64,000 bases of DNA from Dictyostelium discoideum. Its lineage: Eukaryota. The DNA lies in the NCBI GenBank assembly GCA_000004695.1, contig CM000151.3, positions 3,136,001-3,200,000 of the forward strand, in the 5' to 3' direction. The translations under genes and the position numbers were made by a program. Of the stretch, positions 9,928 to 47,056 are shown piece after piece. The first letter of the stretch is position 1, and each line of letters starts with the position of its first letter. The notes below the pieces were generated by a model. The model was not told the origin of the DNA, ran no database searches, and saw only the letters and a list, made by a program, of their open reading frames with translations.

Positions 9928-11088
9928 TTATTTATTAAAAAAAGAAGGTGTAACTATATTAATATTATTACAATTTGAACAAGATAATTGAATTTCATGA
10001 TTTGAAGTTAATGTATTTAAAATTGGTATCATTGGTTTTGAATAATATAAACCTGTACATTTCTTTTGAGAACAATAAAACTTTGAAATCCAATTATCCA
10101 TTGAATCAATTGAATTTGAATCACCATTACATCTTGGACAAATACAATCAAAGTAATAACCATACTTTAATTCATCTTTTCTATCTTGTATTGGTTGATC
10201 TAATTCAATATAAGATATTGTCAATTGGTCACCCTTTTTAATTGGATATAATGATTTAAATGTCATATTACTACCATCTCTAACATCTGTACAATTTGGT
10301 ATACAAGAATGATTAAAATAACTACTACTTGGTGATACTGCAACACCAATACACTTATCATTCTTTGTCCAAATTCCAAATTGATTACATCTAGTTTTAT
10401 GTATAATTGATCTACTTTTTTCATTAATTTTCCTAATCATTTCAATTTTATCATCATTATTAATTATTGATTTTGTTGTTGTTGACCCTAATAATACTAA
10501 ATTAAACAATTCACTTATAAATTCAACGATTGAATCAATTCTTTCTTTTGCTGCTGGATTTGATTCTTCTGTAACTTGATTTTCTACTAAATCAAAAACA
10601 TCATCTAATGTATTTGTTAATTGTTCATTATCATTATTATTATTATTGTTGTTATTTAATTGTTGTTCAATAAATTTATTATTTAATAAAATATCTTGAT
10701 AATATCTTGATAACAAACCAACGATCATTCTAATTTCTGTAAATGTTTCAATATCAAAATTTGGATAAACTTTTAATTTTGGTGATTTTAATTTTTTATA
10801 AAATTTACATTCATAATGTTGATGTTTATTAATATTTTCATTTTTACATTGTTCATTACAATACCAAATTTCATTACATTGATTACATTTTAATGATAAT
10901 TTAATAACTGATGGTAATTGTTTAATACAATTAAAACATGATGTTGTTTTTAAAGTTTCTGATGTAACTGCAAAATATGATTTACATTTTAATAAATCTT
11001 CTCCAATTTGAATATCACGAGTTGCTATTAAATAACGACCTTCATTCTCTGAACTTTTTAATTCTAATCCATTAAAAGATTTAAACAT
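9928..11088 (-). CDS. SET and MYND domain-containing (SMYD-type) lysine methyltransferase, copy 1
   Basis: Single 386-aa ORF. The MYND zinc finger is 'CFNCIKQ...CNQCNEIWYCNEQCKNENINKHQHYECKF'. The SET domain shows the 'NHSCIPNC' motif and 'FKSLYPIKKGDQLTISY'; the post-SET region is 'CICPRCN'. The gene is 57% AT-rich but structured (not low-complexity) outside a short poly-N tract. Confidence 0.85.
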   Translation of the reverse strand: MFKSFNGLELKSSENEGRYLIATRDIQIGEDLLKCKSYFAVTSETLKTTSCFNCIKQLPSVIKLSLKCNQCNEIWYCNEQCKNENINKHQHYECKFYKKLKSPKLKVYPNFDIETFTEIRMIVGLLSRYYQDILLNNKFIEQQLNNNNNNNNDNEQLTNTLDDVFDLVENQVTEESNPAAKERIDSIVEFISELFNLVLLGSTTTKSIINNDDKIEMIRKINEKSRSIIHKTRCNQFGIWTKNDKCIGVAVSPSSSYFNHSCIPNCTDVRDGSNMTFKSLYPIKKGDQLTISYIELDQPIQDRKDELKYGYYFDCICPRCNGDSNSIDSMDNWISKFYCSQKKCTGLYYSKPMIPILNTLTSNHEIQLSCSNCNNINIVTPSFFNK

Positions 11089-11333: not shown

Positions 11334-11872
11334 TTAATAATTTGGTTTATTTAAATAAAAATTTGAATTAACAATTAATTGATCATTACAAGTTGAACAT
11401 GATAATTGAATTTCATGATTATCAATGTTGGTTAATGATTGTAGTGATAATTTTAATTTTGAATAATATAAACCTGTACATTTCTTTTGATGGCAATAAA
11501 ATTTTGAAATCCAATTATCTAATGAATCCTCTAATTTACCAGTTGGATCAATATCTGTTGAATTACATCTTGGACATTGACAATGAAAGTAGTAACCAAA
11601 TTTCAAATAATCTCTACGTCTTTTAGTTGATTTATCTAATGCCAAATAAGAGATATTAATTTGGTCACCTTTTTTAATTGGAAATAATGATTTAAATGTC
11701 ATATCACTACCATCTCTAACCGATTCACAATTTGGTATACATGAATGATTAAAATAACTACTACTTGGTGATACTGCCATACCAATACATTTATCATTCT
11801 TTGTCCAAATTCCAAATTGATTACATCTAACTTTTTGAATTAATGGTCTAATTAATTTAATTAATTCTTCAA

Positions 11873-11962
<90 letters not shown>

Positions 11963-12575
11963 CATTACTATTATTATTTATTGTTAATTTTAATATATTT
12001 ATAATATATTCAATAATATTATCAATATATTCTTTTGCTACACTATTTGTTTCTTCATTTATATCATTTTCTACTAAATCTAATACACCATCCAATGTAT
12101 CTTTTATAAAATCTTCTTCATCATCTTGTTGATTATTTATTATTATTGATGAATTGAATTTATTATTTAATAATTTATCTTGATAATATCTTGAGAGTAA
12201 ACCAAGTATTATTCTGATTTCAGAGTATGAATCGAAATCGAGTTTTGAATTTTGAATTAATTTTGGTGATTTTATATTGTTGAAAAATGCACATTCATAA
12301 TGTTGATGTTTTGCTTGATTATCTTGTTTACATTTTTCACTACAATACCAAACTTCATTACATCCAAAACATCTTGGTACTTGTTGAGGTGATGGTGATT
12401 TAATTAACTTTATACAATTGTAACAACTATTCTTTTTAAAATCTTCACATGTAACTGCAAAATATGATTTACATTTTAATATACTCTCTCCAATGTCAAT
12501 ATCTCTATTTGCTATAATATACCTTCCCTCTAACTCTGAATTCGATAATTTTAATCCATCAAAAGATTTAAACAT
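11334..12575 (-). CDS. SET and MYND domain-containing (SMYD-type) lysine methyltransferase, copy 2 (tandem paralog)
   Basis: A 413-aa ORF with the same architecture and the same N-terminus ('MFKSFDGLKLSNSELEGRYIIANRDIDIGESILKCKSYFAVT') as the neighbouring 9928..11088 gene. The same MYND and SET ('NHSCIPNCESVRDGSDMTFKSLFPIKKGDQINISY') motifs are present. It contains a 29-codon poly-N insertion encoded by an (ATT)n run at 11866-11970. Confidence 0.85.
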
Positions 12576-12776: not shown

Positions 12777-13693
12777 AAAATAGAATTGCCCCATCTTTCA
12801 AGATATTTAAAATTTGATGGACAAGTGGGAAGAAAAAAAAAATTAAAAAAAAATAAAAATGATAATAAAAAAAAAAAAAAAATTTGGAATTGAGAAATCA
12901 TGGCAGACTTGTCTTTTTTTTTTTTATTTTTTTTTTTTTTTTATTTATTTTTGTGCAGGGTTTTTTTGTAAAACCAAGATATTTTTTAAAACCATTTTAC
13001 ACAATAATTTTTTTTCTTTTTTTTTTTTTTTTTTTATTTTTACTATTTTTTTTTTATTTTTTTTTTTTTTAAAAAAATTTATTTGTTTAATTTTATTTCT
13101 TTTTTTTTTATTAATTATCATTATTATTTTTATTTTTTATTTATTTTTTTTTTTATTTTTTTTATTTTTTTTTTTAATTTTTTGAAAACTTCAAAATTAA
13201 TTTCTATTTTTAACATTTTTTTTTTTTTTTCTGCTCCCATTACCTTTCTAAACAATTTTTTTTTCAAAACGACTCCATTTTGATTATAAAATTGAAAAAA
13301 ATAAAAAAAAATTTTTTTAATCGAAAAAATTCAAATTTTTTATTTTTTTTTTTAATTTTTTAATTTTTTTTTTTTGTTTAATGCATTTCCAACAACAGCA
13401 TTGTCATACCACTCCAAACAAACTCATTTTAATCTTGTTGTATTATTGTTTTTTACTTTTTTTTCTTTTAAAAAAAGTAAATAAACTTTTTTCCAACAAA
13501 AATTTCACACATGCATTTTTTTTTTTACCTTTATCTTTTTGTAATTTAAATTAAATAATAATAATAATAAAAATAAAAATAATAATTAAAATAATAATAA
13601 AAATAAAAATAATAATAAAAATCTATATGATAATAATAATAAAAATAGTAAAATAATAATAATAATAATAATAAATAATAATAATAAACTAAA

Positions 13694-13753
<60 letters not shown>

Positions 13754-13952
13754 GTATTTTAATAATTCAAACTATTCACTGTCGGCACCAACAAAGTTTT
13801 TAAGACTATTTTCACAACTTTTTTTCTTTTTTTTTTTTGTCCATTACAGACAAAAAAAAAAATTTTTTTAAAAAAAAAAAAAAGATTTAAAAAATTAAAA
13901 AAAAAAAAAATTAAAAAAAAAAAATTGATATAAAAAAAAATAGATATAACAG

Positions 13953-13983
<31 letters not shown>

Positions 13984-14162
13984 TGAAAAAAACCAAAACC
14001 AAAAAAATAAAAAAAACAAACAATAACCAAATAATAATAATTTATATATTTTATATATAAATTTAAAATAAAAAAAATAGATTTACAATTTAAAAATTAA
14101 AATATTACTATAGCAATAATAGTAATAATTTAAAAAATATGAATAATAATATTAATAGTACT

Positions 14163-14252
<90 letters not shown>

Positions 14253-14383
14253 TCCAATAAAGACAATTATAATGGATATAAAACACCCAAGATCCAAAAC
14301 CAAATAGTAAACCCTCAAAGTATCAACCAATAAAAACACAAACTCAATTTAGTAAACCCGATATTGCCAAAAATATTGGAGAA

Positions 14384-14521
14384 TTGGTTGAATATTTAGA
14401 TAAAAAGAAACAATATATTGAAGGAAAAGCATCAACAACACCTTTATCAACTTCACCAACATTAAATTCAAAATCATCATTTAATAATAATAATAATAAT
14501 AATAATAACAATAATAATAAT

Positions 14522-14590
<69 letters not shown>

Positions 14591-15010
14591 TTTTCAGAAG
14601 ATGATGAATATTATAGTGATGATAATCAAAATAATCAAAATAATCAAAATAATAATAATTGTGAAGATTCAGAATTAAATATTGAAGAATATTCAAATAT
14701 ATTTAAAAAATTAAAACAAGAGAATAGTTTTAATGAAATTATAAATTTTACAGAGAGGGAAATTTTGGTATTATGTGAAGTTTGTAAACATTATTTTAGT
14801 GATTTCAAAAAGAATAAATTCAATAATTTCGATAAATTATTATTATATTTAGCATTTAGTAAAGCAGGATCAAGCACAACACACATTAGTAAAATGTTTA
14901 ACGTTACTCAAGTTACAATTAGTCGGGTTGTACAAAAGATACGTATTGTAATTGATCAACTTTCAAAAAGAGATTTACCATTTGATATATTTAGACCATC
15001 AGTTAATGGT

Positions 15011-15052
<42 letters not shown>

Positions 15053-15061
15053 TCAAATAAT

Positions 15062-15103
<42 letters not shown>

Positions 15104-16507
15104 CAAAATAATTTTAAAATTCAAAAGAATCCATATCATATTGGTTTAATAGTTGATTGTATCACTATTAAAACTACAATAGCAGATTCAAAGAAAAAGG
15201 AATACTTTGATCCAATTAATAACATATATGGCATTAAATTTATGGTTGCAGTTCAATTCAGTTCACCACATTATTCAATTTTTGTTTCTGCACCTTATCT
15301 TGGTTCAACACCTGATCTAACCATATTTAATCAACAAAAACATAATCTATTAAACTATCTTCAAAAACAAGATACACCTTCAGAAATTGATCAAACTGGT
15401 AAATTTAAATCATGGGCAATTTTAACTTTATTCGATCCTCAAACAGGTTCCTCATTACCTTATTCAAATTATTATAAAAATGTTAATGGTATGGTTCAAA
15501 TAGTTAATCAAAATCAAAATCAAAATAATCAAAATAATCAAAATAATCAAAATAGTCAAAATAATCAAAATAATAACAATCAAAGTAATTATTGTAATAA
15601 TAATAGTTTACCATCTAGTGCAACAACTACACCACCATTAAATTCACAAAATTATAATAATAGTAATAGTAGTAGTAGTAGTAATATACAGGAATATACA
15701 ATGACGACGACCATGATGACGGCAACGACGGCCACAATGACAACTACTACAACTACAAATACAAATTCAAAGTGTATTGATGAAATGAGAATAATAAATA
15801 TAAATGATAATTTAAAAGAATTTGAATCACATAGGATGACAATTGATAAATATTTTGGTAGATTATATGGGTTATGGGGAATTACTGGTAATTATCGGTT
15901 GGATCAACGTTTCATTGAAATCGATTTTAAAAATTTACAATGGTTAACAAATGTTCATATTCAAAAGAAAGATTTAGATAATGACGATTTAACTTTTTTT
16001 TATCAATTTAAAAAGAATTTATTTGAATCTGATAAAAGAATTACAAAAAGTAGAAAAAAAGATAAAAAAGTAACAAGTCCACAACAAAGAAGACAATCAA
16101 ATAGAAATCATGATATTAATAATAATAATAATAATAATAATAAAAATAATATTAATATTAATATCAATAATAATAATAACAATAATAATAGCAATAATAA
16201 TAATAGCAATAATAATAATAATAGCAATAATAATAGTAATAATAATAATAATAATGGAAATAGTGATGGAAATAATAATAGTGATAACAGTAAATATAAT
16301 ATTAATAATATTATTAATAAAAACAACATCAATAATAATAATAATAATAACATATCTTCATCTACAACCACCTCAACTTCAACTACATTTCAAAATCATT
16401 CATTTGATGATGAAGAGTATGAAGATGAATCATATGATACCTCTGAATATGACGATGGTGAATTAATTTTTGATGGAGATGATGAAGATAATAATTTTAA
16501 TAATAAT

Positions 16508-16541
<34 letters not shown>

Positions 16542-16612
16542 TAGAAACAAATAGAAATAAAAATGATGATCCTCGTGAAGATACTGGTCCATTTAAAAAA
16601 AGAAAATTTTAG
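14384..16612 (+). CDS. Harbinger/PIF-type DDE transposase-derived protein (HTH + DDE_Tnp_4 core), heavily interrupted by poly-N tracts; likely a domesticated HARBI1-like gene. The 5' end and true start are unresolved
   Basis: A 742-codon ORF. An in-frame stop at 14279-14281 and the absence of an ATG before TTG 14384 imply an upstream exon or alternative start. The helix-turn-helix reads 'SSTTHISKMFNVTQVTISRVVQKI'. The DDE_Tnp_4-like blocks are 'IGLIVDCITIKTT' (D-x-T), 'YGIKFMVAVQFSS', 'VSAPYLGSTPDLTIFN' (PGS.hD..I) and 'IDKYFGRLYGLWGITGNY' (ER.FG.LK.RF). These are separated by N-rich and other low-complexity tracts of 27 to more than 100 codons. Confidence 0.7.
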
Positions 16613-16624
16613 TGCAAAATTTAA

Positions 16625-16982
16625 ATTAAAACAAATAAAGAAAATGTTTATTTTTTTCCTTTTTTTTTTTTTATAATTTTAATATAATCAGTTTTTTTTT
16701 TTTTAATTATTTAGATATTTTTTTTATATGTTTATATATATACATTTTTTTTAAAAAAAAAAAAGTTGTAATTTATTCTATTCAAACCAAAACATTCTTT
16801 AATTGGTATGCTAATTGTAACATTTGATCGGTTGCTGAATTCCAACATTTTCCATCCATCAAATACACCTTTAATTCCTCTGGATCATCCTAAAATTTTA
16901 GGTTAAATTTTAAATCAAACAAACAAAGAAAATGTTTATTTATTTTTTTTATAAATGTAATTAATTAATTTTAATTTATACT

Positions 16983-17041
<59 letters not shown>

Positions 17042-17215
17042 CAATTAAATAATTCAAATATTCATTTTTTCATGTAAGTATATTTTCTTTAAAAAAAAAA
17101 TTTGTTGTAGTTTATTCTCCTCAACCCAAAAACATTCTTGATACTGCACGTTTTACTAATTGTTCCGTTTGGTTGGTTGCTGAACTCCAATATTTTCCCT
17201 TCCATCAAATCAACT
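16625..17215. repeat. Tandem direct repeat: two ~290-bp units of about 75% identity, immediately 3' of the Harbinger-like gene
   Basis: Unit starts are 'aaacaaataaagaaaatgtttattttttt' (16631) and 'caaacaaacaaagaaaatgtttatttatttttttt' (16915). Unit cores are 'gttgtaatttattctattcaaaccaaaacattctttaattgg...ggttgctgaattccaacattttccatccatcaaatacacc' (16770-16870) and 'gttgtagtttattctcctcaacccaaaaacattcttgatact...ggttgctgaactccaatattttcccttccatcaaatcaac' (17100-17215). Confidence 0.8.
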
Positions 17216-17260
17216 GTAAATATTTTTGATGATTCTAAAATTATAAAAAAATATTAGTTA

Positions 17261-17420
17261 TTGCTTTATTTTATTTTATTTTATTTTATTTTATTTTATT
17301 TTATTTTATTTTATTTTATTTTATTTTATTTTATTTTATTTTATTTTATTTATTTATTTATTTTTTTTATTTTATTATATTTTATTTTTTTATCTATTTG
17401 TTGTTTGTTTATCTATATAT

Positions 17421-17463
<43 letters not shown>

Positions 17464-17470
17464 TTTGTTT
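17261..17470. repeat. (TTTTA)n followed by (TTTA)n microsatellites
   Basis: Visible 'ttttattttattttat' repeats at 17261-17345 and 'atttatttattt' repeats at 17400-17465. Confidence 0.9.
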
Positions 17471-17934
17471 ATAAAAACAATATCAAATAATTTCAATAAT
17501 AATATTTATTTAAGACAAAAAAAAAAAAAAAACAATAGCAAATAAAACAGTATCAAAATATCAAATAAATGTTTGGTATTGTTTTTTTTTTTTTTTAATA
17601 TGCACAATTTAAAAAAATTAAAATAAATTAAAAAATAAAATAAATTTGCTGTTAAACAGTGAAAAAAAATAATTATTAGAAATTTTTTTTTGAAATTTGA
17701 ATTTAAACCACCTCCAACAACAAAAAAGTGCGCTAAATAACGGAATTGATTTTAAAATTTTTTTTATTTAAATGGGCCAAAAAAAAAAAAAAAAGTTTTT
17801 TCTTTTTATTTCAAAATTTTTTTTTTTTTCATAGTTCACAAACAAACATAACAAAAAAAAATAAATAAATAAAAACACAAATAATTTAAACAGTAAGTGA
17901 TAATCTATATAGTTTAGTTTTGGAATATGGTCTA

Positions 17935-17968
<34 letters not shown>

Positions 17969-18180
17969 AACACTACCAAATTTAAATAAACATTTCAATA
18001 AACTAATTAGTCTTACCATAACTTTACTTTATTTTTTATTTTTTATTTTTTATTTTTTATTTTTTATTTATTTTTTTTTATTTTATTTACACTTCATACC
18101 TAATTTTCCTTTATTCCAATTGCACATTACTTATAAACAATAGATATATAAATTAATAAAAAAAAAAAAAAATAAAAAAA

Positions 18181-18441
18181 ATGTCATCAAGAGATAAACA
18201 AGATAGTAGAAAGAAAGAATTTAAAAAATCACTCGATAGTGAAACAGCAAGAAGAAAGAGAGAAGAAAACTCAATTGGTATTAGAAAAAATGCTAGAGAA
18301 GAGTTAATGTTAAAGAGACGTGGTATCGTTCAACCAAATCCTTCAACTTCTTATCAAATTATCGTTCCACCAGAAGTTCAAGAACAATTCCAAAAATATG
18401 AAAATGAAACTATGGAAAATAAGGTAAATCATAATAGAATC

Positions 18442-18523
<82 letters not shown>

Positions 18524-23374: not shown

Positions 23375-24613
23375 ATGAAAATTTTAAAATCATTAATTAT
23401 TGCATTTTCAATTGTTGGTGCAGTATTATCAAGTAATCAATGTAATGAAGATTATGAATGTGGTGTTGGATATCCATATGCAGCATGTAATGGTGGTTTA
23501 AATGTTTATCCAGGTATTAGTATGGATGGGAATGATAATTTAATTATTGCAGGTAAATTTAATAGTTCACAAGGTGGTCCATTTGGTACACCAAAAATGT
23601 TTAATATTCCAACTTCAGGTAATGGAAGTAATGAAATTTCTCAAAGAATTAATATCAATGGTGAAATTGAAAGTGGTGCAGGATCATTCAAACTTTATTC
23701 ATTCTATGATTATTTACCCCAATCAAATTATTATTATGTATTAATGAATCAAGGTGGATCAGCACCAATTTTCTCACTTATAGATGCAAATAATGGTGGT
23801 GATAAAGTTAAATATGTTTTCAATATTTTCAATACACCATTCGTTCCAATTTTTGATGATATTGAAAAATCAATGATCTATGGTGCTTATGGTATTTATA
23901 AATTAAATAAATTACCAACACAAAGAAGTGATGCTCAAGATGCAACATTAATTTATCAATCACAAATTGTTAATGGTTTAGCAAAAGATGGTAATGATTT
24001 ATATATGTCAACTTATGATGGTAAATTCTTAAAAGGTAAAGCTGATTGTTCAAATTGTACAAAAGATCAATTGATTGAAATTGGTAGTGATACTGATGCA
24101 AGTCATTTAACTGATTTCTTAGTCGAGGGTGATTTAATTGTATTCTCTCATTCAAATGGTATAACTGCTTATTCAAAATCTGCTAACTCTAATCAAGCCA
24201 TTAAATTAATCACTGGTGAAAATGTAATTTCAATGGTTTCAAAGGGTGGTGTCATTTATTATACAACTAAAGATGGTATTGTTAAATCAATTGGTATTGA
24301 TGGTAAAAATGGTAAAACTATTTATACACCAACTTCCAATCATCAATGTCAAGCTGCTGTTGGTTTCCAATCAATTGATGGTGTTTGTAAAGGTAAAACC
24401 TTATGGTATAATGGTATTCCAACTTGTACTCCATTAGGTGAAGGTGGTATCCCTGCTCAATGTTTCACAAGTGTTGATTGTGGTCCAACTCCATATTTCA
24501 CTTGTAATGGTACTTGTGGATGTGTTAATAATTTCAGTGGTTTAGATTGTACTCATTGTGATGGTAATGTTGAATGGTTAAATGGTATCCCATTATGTCA
24601 AATTCCACAATAA
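23375..24613 (+). CDS. Secreted protein of 412 aa with a C-terminal Cys-rich EGF/tenascin-like module
   Basis: Single ORF with the signal peptide 'MKILKSLIIAFSIVGAVLSS'. Cys-rich ends: N-terminal 'NQCNEDYECGVGYPYAACNGG', C-terminal 'CKGKTLWYNGIPTCTPLGEGGIPAQCFTSVDCGPTPYFTCNGTCGCVNNFSGLDCTHCDG'. The middle region is rich in G/S/T/N and alternating hydrophobics, suggesting a beta-rich fold. Confidence 0.7.
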   Translation: MKILKSLIIAFSIVGAVLSSNQCNEDYECGVGYPYAACNGGLNVYPGISMDGNDNLIIAGKFNSSQGGPFGTPKMFNIPTSGNGSNEISQRININGEIESGAGSFKLYSFYDYLPQSNYYYVLMNQGGSAPIFSLIDANNGGDKVKYVFNIFNTPFVPIFDDIEKSMIYGAYGIYKLNKLPTQRSDAQDATLIYQSQIVNGLAKDGNDLYMSTYDGKFLKGKADCSNCTKDQLIEIGSDTDASHLTDFLVEGDLIVFSHSNGITAYSKSANSNQAIKLITGENVISMVSKGGVIYYTTKDGIVKSIGIDGKNGKTIYTPTSNHQCQAAVGFQSIDGVCKGKTLWYNGIPTCTPLGEGGIPAQCFTSVDCGPTPYFTCNGTCGCVNNFSGLDCTHCDGNVEWLNGIPLCQIPQ

Positions 24614-45157: not shown

Positions 45158-47056
45158 ATGTCTTCCTCTATTGGTATTGATTTAGGTACAACTTACTCAT
45201 GTGTTGGTGTCTGGCAAAATGATCGTGTTGAAATCATTGCTAATGATCAAGGTAACAGAACCACCCCATCATACGTTGCTTTCAACGAAACTGAACGTTT
45301 AATTGGTGATGCTGCTAAGAATCAAGTTGCCATGAATCCAACCAACACCATCTTTGATGCCAAACGTTTAATTGGTCGTAAATTCTCTGATCCAGTTATC
45401 CAATCCGATATGAAACATTGGCCATTCAAAGTTATCGCCAAAGAAGGTGACAAACCACATCTCCAAGTTGAATTCAAAGGTGAAGTTAAAACTTTCTCAC
45501 CAGAAGAAGTCTCTTCAATGGTTCTCTTAAAGATGAAAGAAACCGCTGAAGCTTACCTCGGTAAAACCATCAACAACGCCGTTATCACCGTTCCAGCTTA
45601 TTTCAACGATAGCCAACGTCAAGCCACCAAAGATGCAGGTGCCATCGCTAAATTAAACGTCCAACGTATTATCAATGAACCAACTGCCGCCGCTATTGCC
45701 TATGGTCTCGAAAAGAAATCACAAGGTGAACGTAACATCTTAATTTTCGATTTAGGTGGTGGTACATTCGATGTTTCTCTCCTCACCATTGAAGATGGTG
45801 TCTTTGAAGTCAAAGCTACCGCTGGTGATACCCATTTAGGTGGTGAAGATTTTGATAACCGTCTCGTCAACCACTTTGTCGATGAATTCAAACGTAAACA
45901 CAAGAAAGACTTAATGACCAACCAACGTGCCCTCCGTCGTTTAAGAACTGCTTGTGAACGTGCCAAGAGAACTTTATCTTCATCTGCTCAAGCTTCAATT
46001 GAAATTGATTCCCTCTTTGAAGGTATTGATTTCTACACCTCAATCACCAGAGCTCGTTTCGAAGAATTATGCGCTGATCTCTTCCGTGGTTGTTTAGACC
46101 CAGTCGACAAAGTCTTAAAAGACTCCAAATTAGACAAGAAGACCATTCACGAAATCGTCTTAGTCGGTGGTTCAACTCGTATTCCAAAGGTTCAACAATT
46201 ATTACAAGATCATTTCAACGGTAAAGAACTCAACAAATCCATCAATCCAGATGAAGCCGTTGCCTATGGTGCTGCCGTCCAAGCTGCCATTCTCTCCAAC
46301 GAAGGTGGTGCTAAAGTTGCCGATATCTTATTATTAGATGTTGCTCCATTATCAATGGGTCTCGAAACCGCCGGTGGTGTCATGACTACCCTCATCCCAA
46401 GAAATACTACCATTCCATGCAAAAAGAACCAAACTTTCTCCACCTACTCTGATAACCAAACTGGTGTCTTAGTTCAAGTCTACGAAGGTGAACGTGCTAT
46501 GACTCGTGATAACAACTTATTAGGTAAATTCGAATTAACCAACATCCCACCAGCTCCACGTGGTGTCCCACAAATTGAAGTTACTTTCGATATCGATGCC
46601 AACGGTATCTTAAATGTCTCTGCTGAAGATAAGAGCACTGGTAACAAACACAAAATCACCATCACCAACGATAAAGGTAGACTCACTGCTGAACAAATCG
46701 AAAAGATGGTCAAAGATGCTGAAATGTTCAAAGCTCAAGATGAAGCCCAACGTGAAGTTGTTGAATCAAAGAACAAATTAGAAAACTACGCTTACACCGT
46801 TCGTAGCACCATTAAAGACGATAAGATCGCCGCCAAATTATCAAAAGAAGATCGTAAGACCGTCGAAGAGAAATCCGATGAAGCCATCAACTGGTTACAT
46901 GCCAACGACTCTGCCACTAAAGAAGAATACGAAAAAGCCATGAAAGATTTAGAAGCTGTTTGTTCACCAATCATCTCTAAAGTTTACGGTCAACAAGGTG
47001 GTGAAAACCCAGGTAACTTCTCTGGTGCCAAAACCACTGAAGAAGATTTAGATTAA
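45158..47056 (+). CDS. hspE: Cytosolic Hsp70/Hsc70 family chaperone of 632 aa, intronless
   Basis: Full-length Hsp70 with '[14 protein letters not shown]', '[10 protein letters not shown]', '[13 protein letters not shown]' and substrate-binding domain '[24 protein letters not shown]'. It is very close to, but not identical with, the Dictyostelium Hsc70-1 sequence as I recall it. The hspE (Hsc70-2) assignment is therefore from memory. Confidence 0.95.

Follow-up and report, generated by a model that had tools for sequence, protein, structure and literature searches.

A probable domesticated PIF/Harbinger transposase gene, interrupted by low-complexity tracts, on chromosome 2 of Dictyostelium discoideum

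The locus and its gene

The genome region considered here belongs to chromosome 2 of Dictyostelium discoideum AX4, from which a stretch of 64 kb (the window; G+C range 11–35%) was analysed. On its forward strand, at 14139–16612, lies a single-exon gene whose intact allele encodes 824 amino acids: a predicted DNA-binding region with a helix-turn-helix (HTH), a catalytic domain of the DDE_Tnp_4 type known from PIF/Harbinger transposases, and long low-complexity runs between and inside these parts. The gene is probably a single-copy host gene of the D. discoideum species group that was domesticated from a transposase of this superfamily.

In the AX4 window the frame of this gene is broken once, and the ATG at 14139 and the long open reading frame (ORF) from 14384 stand in different frames. 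A sequence-only reading of the stretch had described the locus as a Harbinger-like transposase core within a host-like gene rich in poly-asparagine (poly-N), and its description of the frames was accurate. The 742-codon ORF opening on a TTG was confirmed at 14384–16612 (+), with all four quoted peptide strings recovered in its translation. Likewise confirmed were the in-frame stop at 14279–14281, with the earliest in-frame Met found only within the HTH, and the N-rich mini-ORF at 14139–14333, whose frame differs from that of the long ORF.

All parts of the gene lie on the forward strand. Near its start, a conserved, lineage-specific N-terminal block rich in Lys and Pro (NGYKTPKIPKPNSKPSKYQPIKTQTQFSKPDIAKNIGELVEYLDKKKQYIEGK; 14271–14428) spans the frameshift; it is near-identical in four species, with a ratio of nonsynonymous to synonymous substitution (dN/dS) of 0.02–0.09 over 52 codons. 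It is followed by a predicted N-terminal helical DNA-binding region at 14678–15001, the HTH core of which occupies approximately 14828–14953 (SSTTHISKMFNVTQVTISRVVQKI). A low-complexity linker at 15002–15127, consisting mainly of poly-N, joins this region to the catalytic domain. Its predicted local distance difference test (pLDDT) score is below 50, its length differs between species in the orthologue alignment, and an (AAT)n run covers 15013–15112 within it, one of the (AAT)n runs that Tandem Repeats Finder detected in the window. The N-terminal half of the DDE_Tnp_4, RNase-H-like catalytic domain (15128–15505) contains the residues D258, D311 and D351. The C-terminal half (15788–16069) carries the motif R-x3-[E>D]-x2-FGR-x5-W (HRMTIDKYFGRLYGLW) with D488, and then the LTNVHI helix. 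Between the two halves, at 15506–15787, lies a low-complexity insertion of approximately 94 codons that is rich in QN, S and T and disordered in the structural model. This insertion is placed between the region of the second Asp and the third acidic residue, is unmatched by a profile built from homologues, and differs in both composition and length in each species of the orthologue alignment. Towards the 3' end, an acidic C-terminal block (QNHSFDDEEYEDESYDTSEYDDGELIFDGDDE; 16391–16486) is kept in four species amid variable poly-N, and the gene closes with the basic C-terminus GPFKKRKF and the stop codon (16586–16612), identical or near-identical in the four species. GPFKKRKF is a putative nuclear localisation signal.

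A missing base and the true gene start

The break in the AX4 frame was traced to a 1-bp deletion, one A being missing between 14293 and 14294 relative to the second D. discoideum assembly; in pairwise alignments the window reads AAGAT-CC against AAGATACC. This deletion cuts the ATG and 52 N-terminal codons off from the remaining gene. In the second assembly (L001:832–3306; 824 codons, single exon), the translation is free of stops and yields 824 amino acids, the final 742 of which are identical to the window ORF. With the A restored, the ATG at 14139 shares the frame of the long ORF, and the same 824-amino-acid product results. A comparison of the two D. discoideum sequences shows 14 substitutions over 21 kb, which indicates that they do not represent the same clone. 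The AX4 lesion is an error of the reference or else a null allele peculiar to the strain, and, once flagged, it accounts for a true gene start that the AX4 sequence hides.

Furthermore, all three sister species (3/3) read through the frameshift region in frame (...KTPKIPKP...). This read-through, together with strong constraint, indicates that the mini-ORF is the real N-terminus and that no upstream spliced exon is needed. Such an exon had been considered likely; it was not borne out, since the other D. discoideum assembly and the three sister species have one uninterrupted exon from the ATG of the mini-ORF. As spliced models, 27 GT..AG joins of the mini-ORF to the long ORF had been enumerated, and four of the 27 were looked up by exact sequence without a match; the cross-strain alignment made these models unnecessary.

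Homology to PIF/Harbinger transposases

The assignment to PIF/Harbinger rests on remote-homology statistics, since the low-complexity tracts hide the domain from standard scans. An hmmscan search for PF13359 and PF13613 supported it in part: the raw ORF gave no DDE_Tnp_4 match and an E-value of 0.3 for HTH_Tnp_4, whereas DDE_Tnp_4 was matched at E 1.1–1.6e-4 (21.7–22.3 bits; profile positions approximately 1–70 of 158) once the low-complexity runs had been removed. The trimmed orthologue of D. firmibasis reached 23.8 bits for the same model, so that the E-values of the two species range from 4e-5 to 1.6e-4. For the N-terminal region, the trimmed ORF gave E 0.016 and 15 bits for HTH_Tnp_4 (cut-off 27 bits) and E 0.009 for HTH_SB. 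In the non-AX4 NCBI assemblies examined, the annotated orthologues have no Pfam match on record.

Stronger evidence came from an exhaustive phmmer search, in which residues 100–560 of the native ORF were compared with a library of 1.84e9 representative proteins. It returned 137 matches at E<=1e-3, 36 of them at E<=1e-10, with a best value of 5.9e-21. The matched proteins are mostly 370–440 amino acids long and align in three collinear stretches, namely the HTH, the N-terminal half and the C-terminal half of the DDE domain. PF13359 was found in every one of the 41 top matches (best E 7.6e-20), and PF01609 as well in 16 of them. A profile built from these 41 homologues, with the query excluded, scored the ORF at 174 bits, distributed over blocks of 52, 73 and 65 bits; by construction this profile is biased toward the query, whereas the phmmer E-values are unbiased. 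Poly-N decoys taken from the window scored at most 22 bits against the native query. Ten top matches were traced, and were found to come from metagenome or Logan contigs, apart from one protein of Monocercomonoides exilis.

Several other searches returned nothing. A word-indexed homologue search with a poly-N-free chimera of the conserved blocks gave no match, and the collection searched seems to lack this protein. By exact look-up, the 824-amino-acid product is absent from the clustered protein collection although the gene has been called, and no orthologue surfaced there. That collection may lack proteins of very low complexity, in which case its negatives would be uninformative for such genes. 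In addition, a PDB sequence search with the N-terminal half of the DDE domain gave no match.

Altogether, the phmmer statistics, the presence of PF13359 in all top matches, the homologue profile and the fold model establish homology to the PIF/Harbinger (DDE_Tnp_4) superfamily although the scores stay below the curated Pfam threshold. The sequence-only reading of a Harbinger/PIF core with a predicted N-terminal HTH inside a poly-N host-like gene is thereby upheld.

Predicted fold and catalytic pocket

An AlphaFold2 model computed with the family alignment as input has a pLDDT above 90 in all three homologous blocks and a predicted template modelling score of 0.74. Its order of strands and helices is that of an RNase-H-like domain, the N-terminal half being built as strand-strand-strand-helix-strand. 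The HTH region (14678–15001) is all-helical in the model, with a pLDDT above 90, a 52-bit block against the homologue profile and a dN/dS of 0.03–0.18. The N-terminal catalytic half (15128–15505) matches PF13359 at E 1e-4 and forms the 73-bit block, and the C-terminal half (15788–16069) combines the 65-bit block with a dN/dS of 0.015–0.05. A Foldseek search of the model against the PDB gave no significant match.

The columns of the catalytic pocket were scored in an alignment with 78 full-length relatives. D258 (15155–15157), within LIVDCIT on strand beta1, is the first Asp and is invariant in 78/78 homologues. D311, in the motif GSTPD, corresponds to the Asp of the family motif GSxHD, which is kept in 77/78; the His of that motif, found in 66 of the 78, is Pro in the Dictyostelium gene, and the Glu of the KKE motif, found in 69, is Met. 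In the place of DKGY, the motif with the second catalytic Asp of IS5/Harbinger enzymes, stands LFDPQ, and the Asp that this string contains, D351 (15434–15436), is shifted by 1–2 positions from the family Asp. In the model D351 stands directly after beta4, the canonical place, which makes it a candidate for the second Asp. The TPxxRRI motif is unmatched by the homologue profile; conserved residues stand there, followed by the disordered insertion. Finally, D488 (15845–15847) takes the place of the catalytic Glu, in a column that is Glu in 73 homologues and Asp in one. D. firmibasis agrees with D. discoideum at the tabulated pocket columns, these two species having been placed in the family alignment, and the strings LFD, GSTPD and ID-x-YFGRL are identical in all four Dictyostelium species. 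The expected conservation of the D/D/E residues thus holds for the first Asp, whereas DKGY is replaced, with an Asp nearby, and the Glu has become Asp.

In the model an acidic triad, D258/D351/D488, persists in this rebuilt pocket. The change from Glu to Asp, together with the replaced DKGY, GSxHD-His and KKE residues, tilts the functional reading toward a catalytically impaired adaptor, which is somewhat favoured over an active nuclease. It is unlikely that the pocket was instead rebuilt as a D-D-D site that would still bind metal and cut or nick DNA, as the outcome of an independent amoebozoan domestication. If such a site were active, Dictyostelium would possess a nuclease or recombinase that is directed by sequence and serves the host, perhaps in the control of chromatin, in anti-silencing or in the handling of its own repeats, and the protein's disordered loop of approximately 94 residues would be a test case for the tolerance of DDE folds to insertions.

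Orthologues, synteny and selection

Syntenic loci were fetched by way of the neighbouring genes from the second D. discoideum assembly (L001), D. citrinum (L002), D. firmibasis (L004) and D. dimigraforme (L005). Besides the second D. discoideum copy described above, single-exon orthologues were found in D. citrinum (L002:1533–3989, 818 codons), D. dimigraforme (L005:6617–9073, 818 codons) and D. firmibasis (L004:6308–9106, 932 codons), and the reading frame is intact in all four non-AX4 assemblies. In the four species the gene holds the same position, with SMYD-type SET+MYND genes on its upstream side and importin-alpha as the next gene downstream. The non-repetitive blocks are nearly identical across species, and the poly-N/Q/T runs between them differ in every species. 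Over 410 alignable codons the pairwise dN/dS is 0.05–0.09 at a dS of 0.32–0.72 (NG86 and YN00).

Transposon hallmarks and copy number

No terminal inverted repeats (TIRs) flank the gene; such inverted repeats as occur are simple sequence of the poly-A/poly-T or (AAATAA)n/(TTTAT)n kind. Among inverted 12-mers, those containing three or more G/C numbered 6, compared with a shuffle mean of 1.9 and a shuffle maximum of 8; they are thus no commoner than in shuffled sequence, and all of them were trivial. The gene is bracketed by (AAATAA)n at 13552–13749 and (TTTAT)n at 17274–17471, which score as a 198-nt 'inverted repeat' of 70% identity; this pair was rejected as TIRs because it consists of complementary microsatellites. 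With no TIRs to mark an edge, there is no place at which to look for a target-site duplication, and at approximately 85% A+T the triplets TAA/TTA occur everywhere. In addition, no Myb-like partner ORF was found between the SMYD gene (ending at 12575) and importin-alpha (starting at 18181), where the other ORFs are of low complexity.

The homologue profile detected exactly one copy per syntenic locus and none elsewhere in the window. AX4 proteins encoded in the window (for example at 23375–24613 and 45158–47056) carry paired accessions (EAL70491.1/EAL70848.1, EAL70502.1/EAL70842.1), and window ORFs exactly match Hsc70-2 (EAL70502.1/EAL70842.1) and an EGF-like protein (XP_644417.1). The pairs fit the known segmental duplication of AX4 chromosome 2. 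They place the window in a duplicated AX4 segment, so that the gene would be present twice in AX4 by segmental duplication and not by transposition.

Domestication and competing explanations

Conserved synteny in four species, a dN/dS of approximately 0.07, and the lack of both TIRs and a partner ORF argue for a domesticated transposase. The proposal of long residence and domestication is supported by the same synteny, constraint and absence of TIRs, whereas the more specific label of a 'HARBI1-like nuclease' can be kept as an analogy only: the catalytic Glu is Asp, pocket residues are changed, and the nearest relatives are transposase-like proteins from protists and metagenomes.

The gene retains the predicted HTH and the RNase-H-like catalytic fold of the transposase but has lost the transposon ends. 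It has gained conserved, lineage-specific terminal blocks, namely a head rich in Lys and Pro, an acidic patch and a tail bearing KKRK. Long poly-N/Q/T loops are tolerated between and inside the domains, and strong purifying selection acts on all non-repetitive parts. The product would be a nuclear, sequence-directed DNA-binding protein, in which the HTH and the transposase core may serve as a DNA- or chromatin-binding scaffold, as in other domesticated Harbinger transposases.

Several points weigh against this interpretation. The Pfam gathering score of 24.8 bits for DDE_Tnp_4 is not reached even by the trimmed sequences, and the C-terminal half of that Pfam model stays unaligned. The blocks used for dN/dS were chosen for alignability, which biases omega somewhat downward. 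In D. purpureum, importin-alpha has other neighbours, and the homologue profile found no orthologue up to 10 kb from it. The term 'single-copy' refers to the syntenic loci and the 64-kb window, DNA binding and a nuclear location are predicted properties, and the frameshifted AX4 allele may not make the full protein.

Improbable, in view of the constraint on the gene, is a decaying relic or pseudogene without function, of which the AX4 frameshift would be the first visible lesion. The base missing after 14293 does sever the ATG and 52 codons, leaving no in-frame ATG before the HTH, and the known segmental duplication of AX4, with which the paired accessions are consistent, could relax selection on one copy. 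However, an undamaged frame is found in three other species as well as in the second D. discoideum assembly, dN/dS stays at approximately 0.07, and the 742 codons past the lesion are identical in both D. discoideum sequences with no further lesion. Moreover, a single base may have been dropped by mistake in a reference of the Sanger era.

The gene could also still belong to a transposon, either as a low-copy autonomous Harbinger element or as a 'stationary' transposase that mobilises non-autonomous elements in trans, a possibility rated as decidedly improbable. DDD triads are functional in other transposase superfamilies such as Tc1/mariner, and the three acidic residues of the Dictyostelium protein occupy canonical positions of the RNase-H fold; its closest relatives, moreover, resemble ordinary transposases of 370–440 amino acids. 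Against a mobile element stand the shared syntenic position in four species at a dS of up to 0.7, the lack of TIRs and of a Myb-like second ORF, the replacement of several near-invariant pocket residues, the added lineage-specific conserved terminal blocks, and the 94-codon disordered insertion inside the catalytic domain. The missing Pfam DDE_Tnp_4 match of the raw ORF and the lack of significant Foldseek matches in the PDB might be cited in favour of a coincidental resemblance, in which short motifs match by chance because the protein is of low complexity. This explanation is refuted by the library-wide E-value of 5.9e-21 in three collinear blocks, by low-complexity decoys of at most 22 bits, and by the membership of all top matches in PF13359.

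Downstream duplication and neighbouring sequences

Downstream of the domesticated gene lie two direct copies of a further unit, placed outside the transposase-derived ancestry and given no strand: copy 1 at 16604–16891 and copy 2, which includes a 58-nt poly-T, at 16892–17250. A repeat search, blastn and MAFFT gave a register spacing of 288–345 bp and an identity of 70–76% with indels, and a 140-bp core (16756–16900) is matched between the copies at a blastn E-value of 3e-14. The tandem duplication of approximately 290 bp that had been noticed here is real as two direct copies, but these are diverged (70–76%), and Tandem Repeats Finder reported no array of approximately 290 bp downstream of the gene. 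It is not a remnant of subterminal repeats or TIRs, as had been proposed. The units are absent in all three further species that bear the gene (D. citrinum, D. dimigraforme and D. firmibasis), at whose loci the first ~50 nt after the stop are followed by T-rich simple sequence, and no inverted partner of the unit was found upstream of the gene.

The second D. discoideum assembly contains both copies as well. In each unit either strand stays open over approximately 45 codons, the minus strand reading, for instance, GKILEFSNQPNGTISKTCSIKNVFGLRRINYNK, and a Pfam search with four short peptides from either strand gave no match. The duplication is a D. discoideum-specific gain of approximately 640 bp, followed by drift; it may stem from a fragment of a gene, from a small element, or from neither of these.

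On the other side of the gene, immediately upstream, two tandem paralogous SMYD-type genes (SET and MYND zinc finger) occupy the minus strand at 9928–11088 and 11334–12575, and the tandem arrangement is also kept in D. firmibasis and D. dimigraforme. Upstream of importin-alpha, strongly conserved non-coding blocks were observed at 17640–17960 in the four species (L002:4200–4640, L005:9440–9860 and L004:9480–9880). Examples are AAATTTGCTGTTAAACAGTG, a small palindrome, and GAAATTTGAATTTAAACC...AAAAAGTGCGCTAAATAACGGAATTGATTTT; a further block reads ATTTAAACAGTAAGT.ATAATCT.TATAGTTTAGTTTTGGAA and includes the splice-donor-like CAG|GTAAGT. Judging by such motifs, these blocks are probably a promoter together with an exon and intron of the 5' untranslated region. 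An Rfam search of 13000–18500, which covers them, returned a single match at chance level (E 0.87).

Comparison with known systems

Vertebrates, flies and plants are known to possess domesticated Harbinger transposases, some of which are now subunits of chromatin complexes. Harbinger domestication is a known kind of event that seems unreported for social amoebae: a full-text search of a literature library that is itself incomplete returned nothing on this gene and nothing linking Dictyostelium to Harbinger, HARBI1 or a domesticated transposase. A link to the thug elements was also considered, and nothing was concluded from it; the thug-S element has an intron (PMC4894637).

With PIF/Harbinger transposases (PF13359 and PF13613, related to bacterial IS5), the Dictyostelium gene shares the domain order, with a predicted HTH ahead of an RNase-H-like DDE domain; the D-x-T-like, G-S-x-x-D and R-x3-[E/D]-x2-F-G-R-x-x-x-W motifs; significant similarity to 137 family clusters; and a modelled fold that appears to match DDE transposases and integrases. 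It differs in having neither TIRs, nor a detectable target-site duplication, nor a Myb-like partner ORF, and in a chromosomal position fixed in four species. Its pocket departs from the family by the exchanges of the catalytic Glu to Asp, DKGY to LFDPQ, GSxHD His to Pro and KKE Glu to Met. Furthermore, the gene carries approximately 120 codons of low-complexity insertions, and with its additional conserved blocks at both termini the protein is about double the length usual in the family.

HARBI1 is reportedly a vertebrate domesticated Harbinger transposase that works with the Myb-like protein NAIF1. The Dictyostelium gene resembles it as a syntenic, selectively constrained, single-copy host gene derived from Harbinger and devoid of transposon ends. 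In contrast to HARBI1, which keeps a canonical DDE and is near transposase length, the Dictyostelium protein has a remodelled pocket and large additions, and no partner resembling NAIF1 was identified for it. Orthology to HARBI1, as to ALP1/HDP1, is unlikely; in the case of HARBI1 because the best matches are transposase-like proteins of protists and metagenomes and not members of a conserved host gene family.

The plant proteins ALP1 and HDP1 are Harbinger-derived subunits of chromatin complexes. By analogy, the Dictyostelium protein may likewise be a Harbinger domain under selection with degenerated catalytic residues, and plausibly a nuclear module for binding protein or DNA. It differs in belonging to an unrelated lineage and, unlike ALP1, in the persistence of three acidic residues. 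The amoebozoan case would thus add an independent example of domestication in a genetically tractable organism. Because poly-N tracts hide such a domain, similar genes may be systematically missed in Dictyostelium and in other genomes rich in low-complexity sequence.

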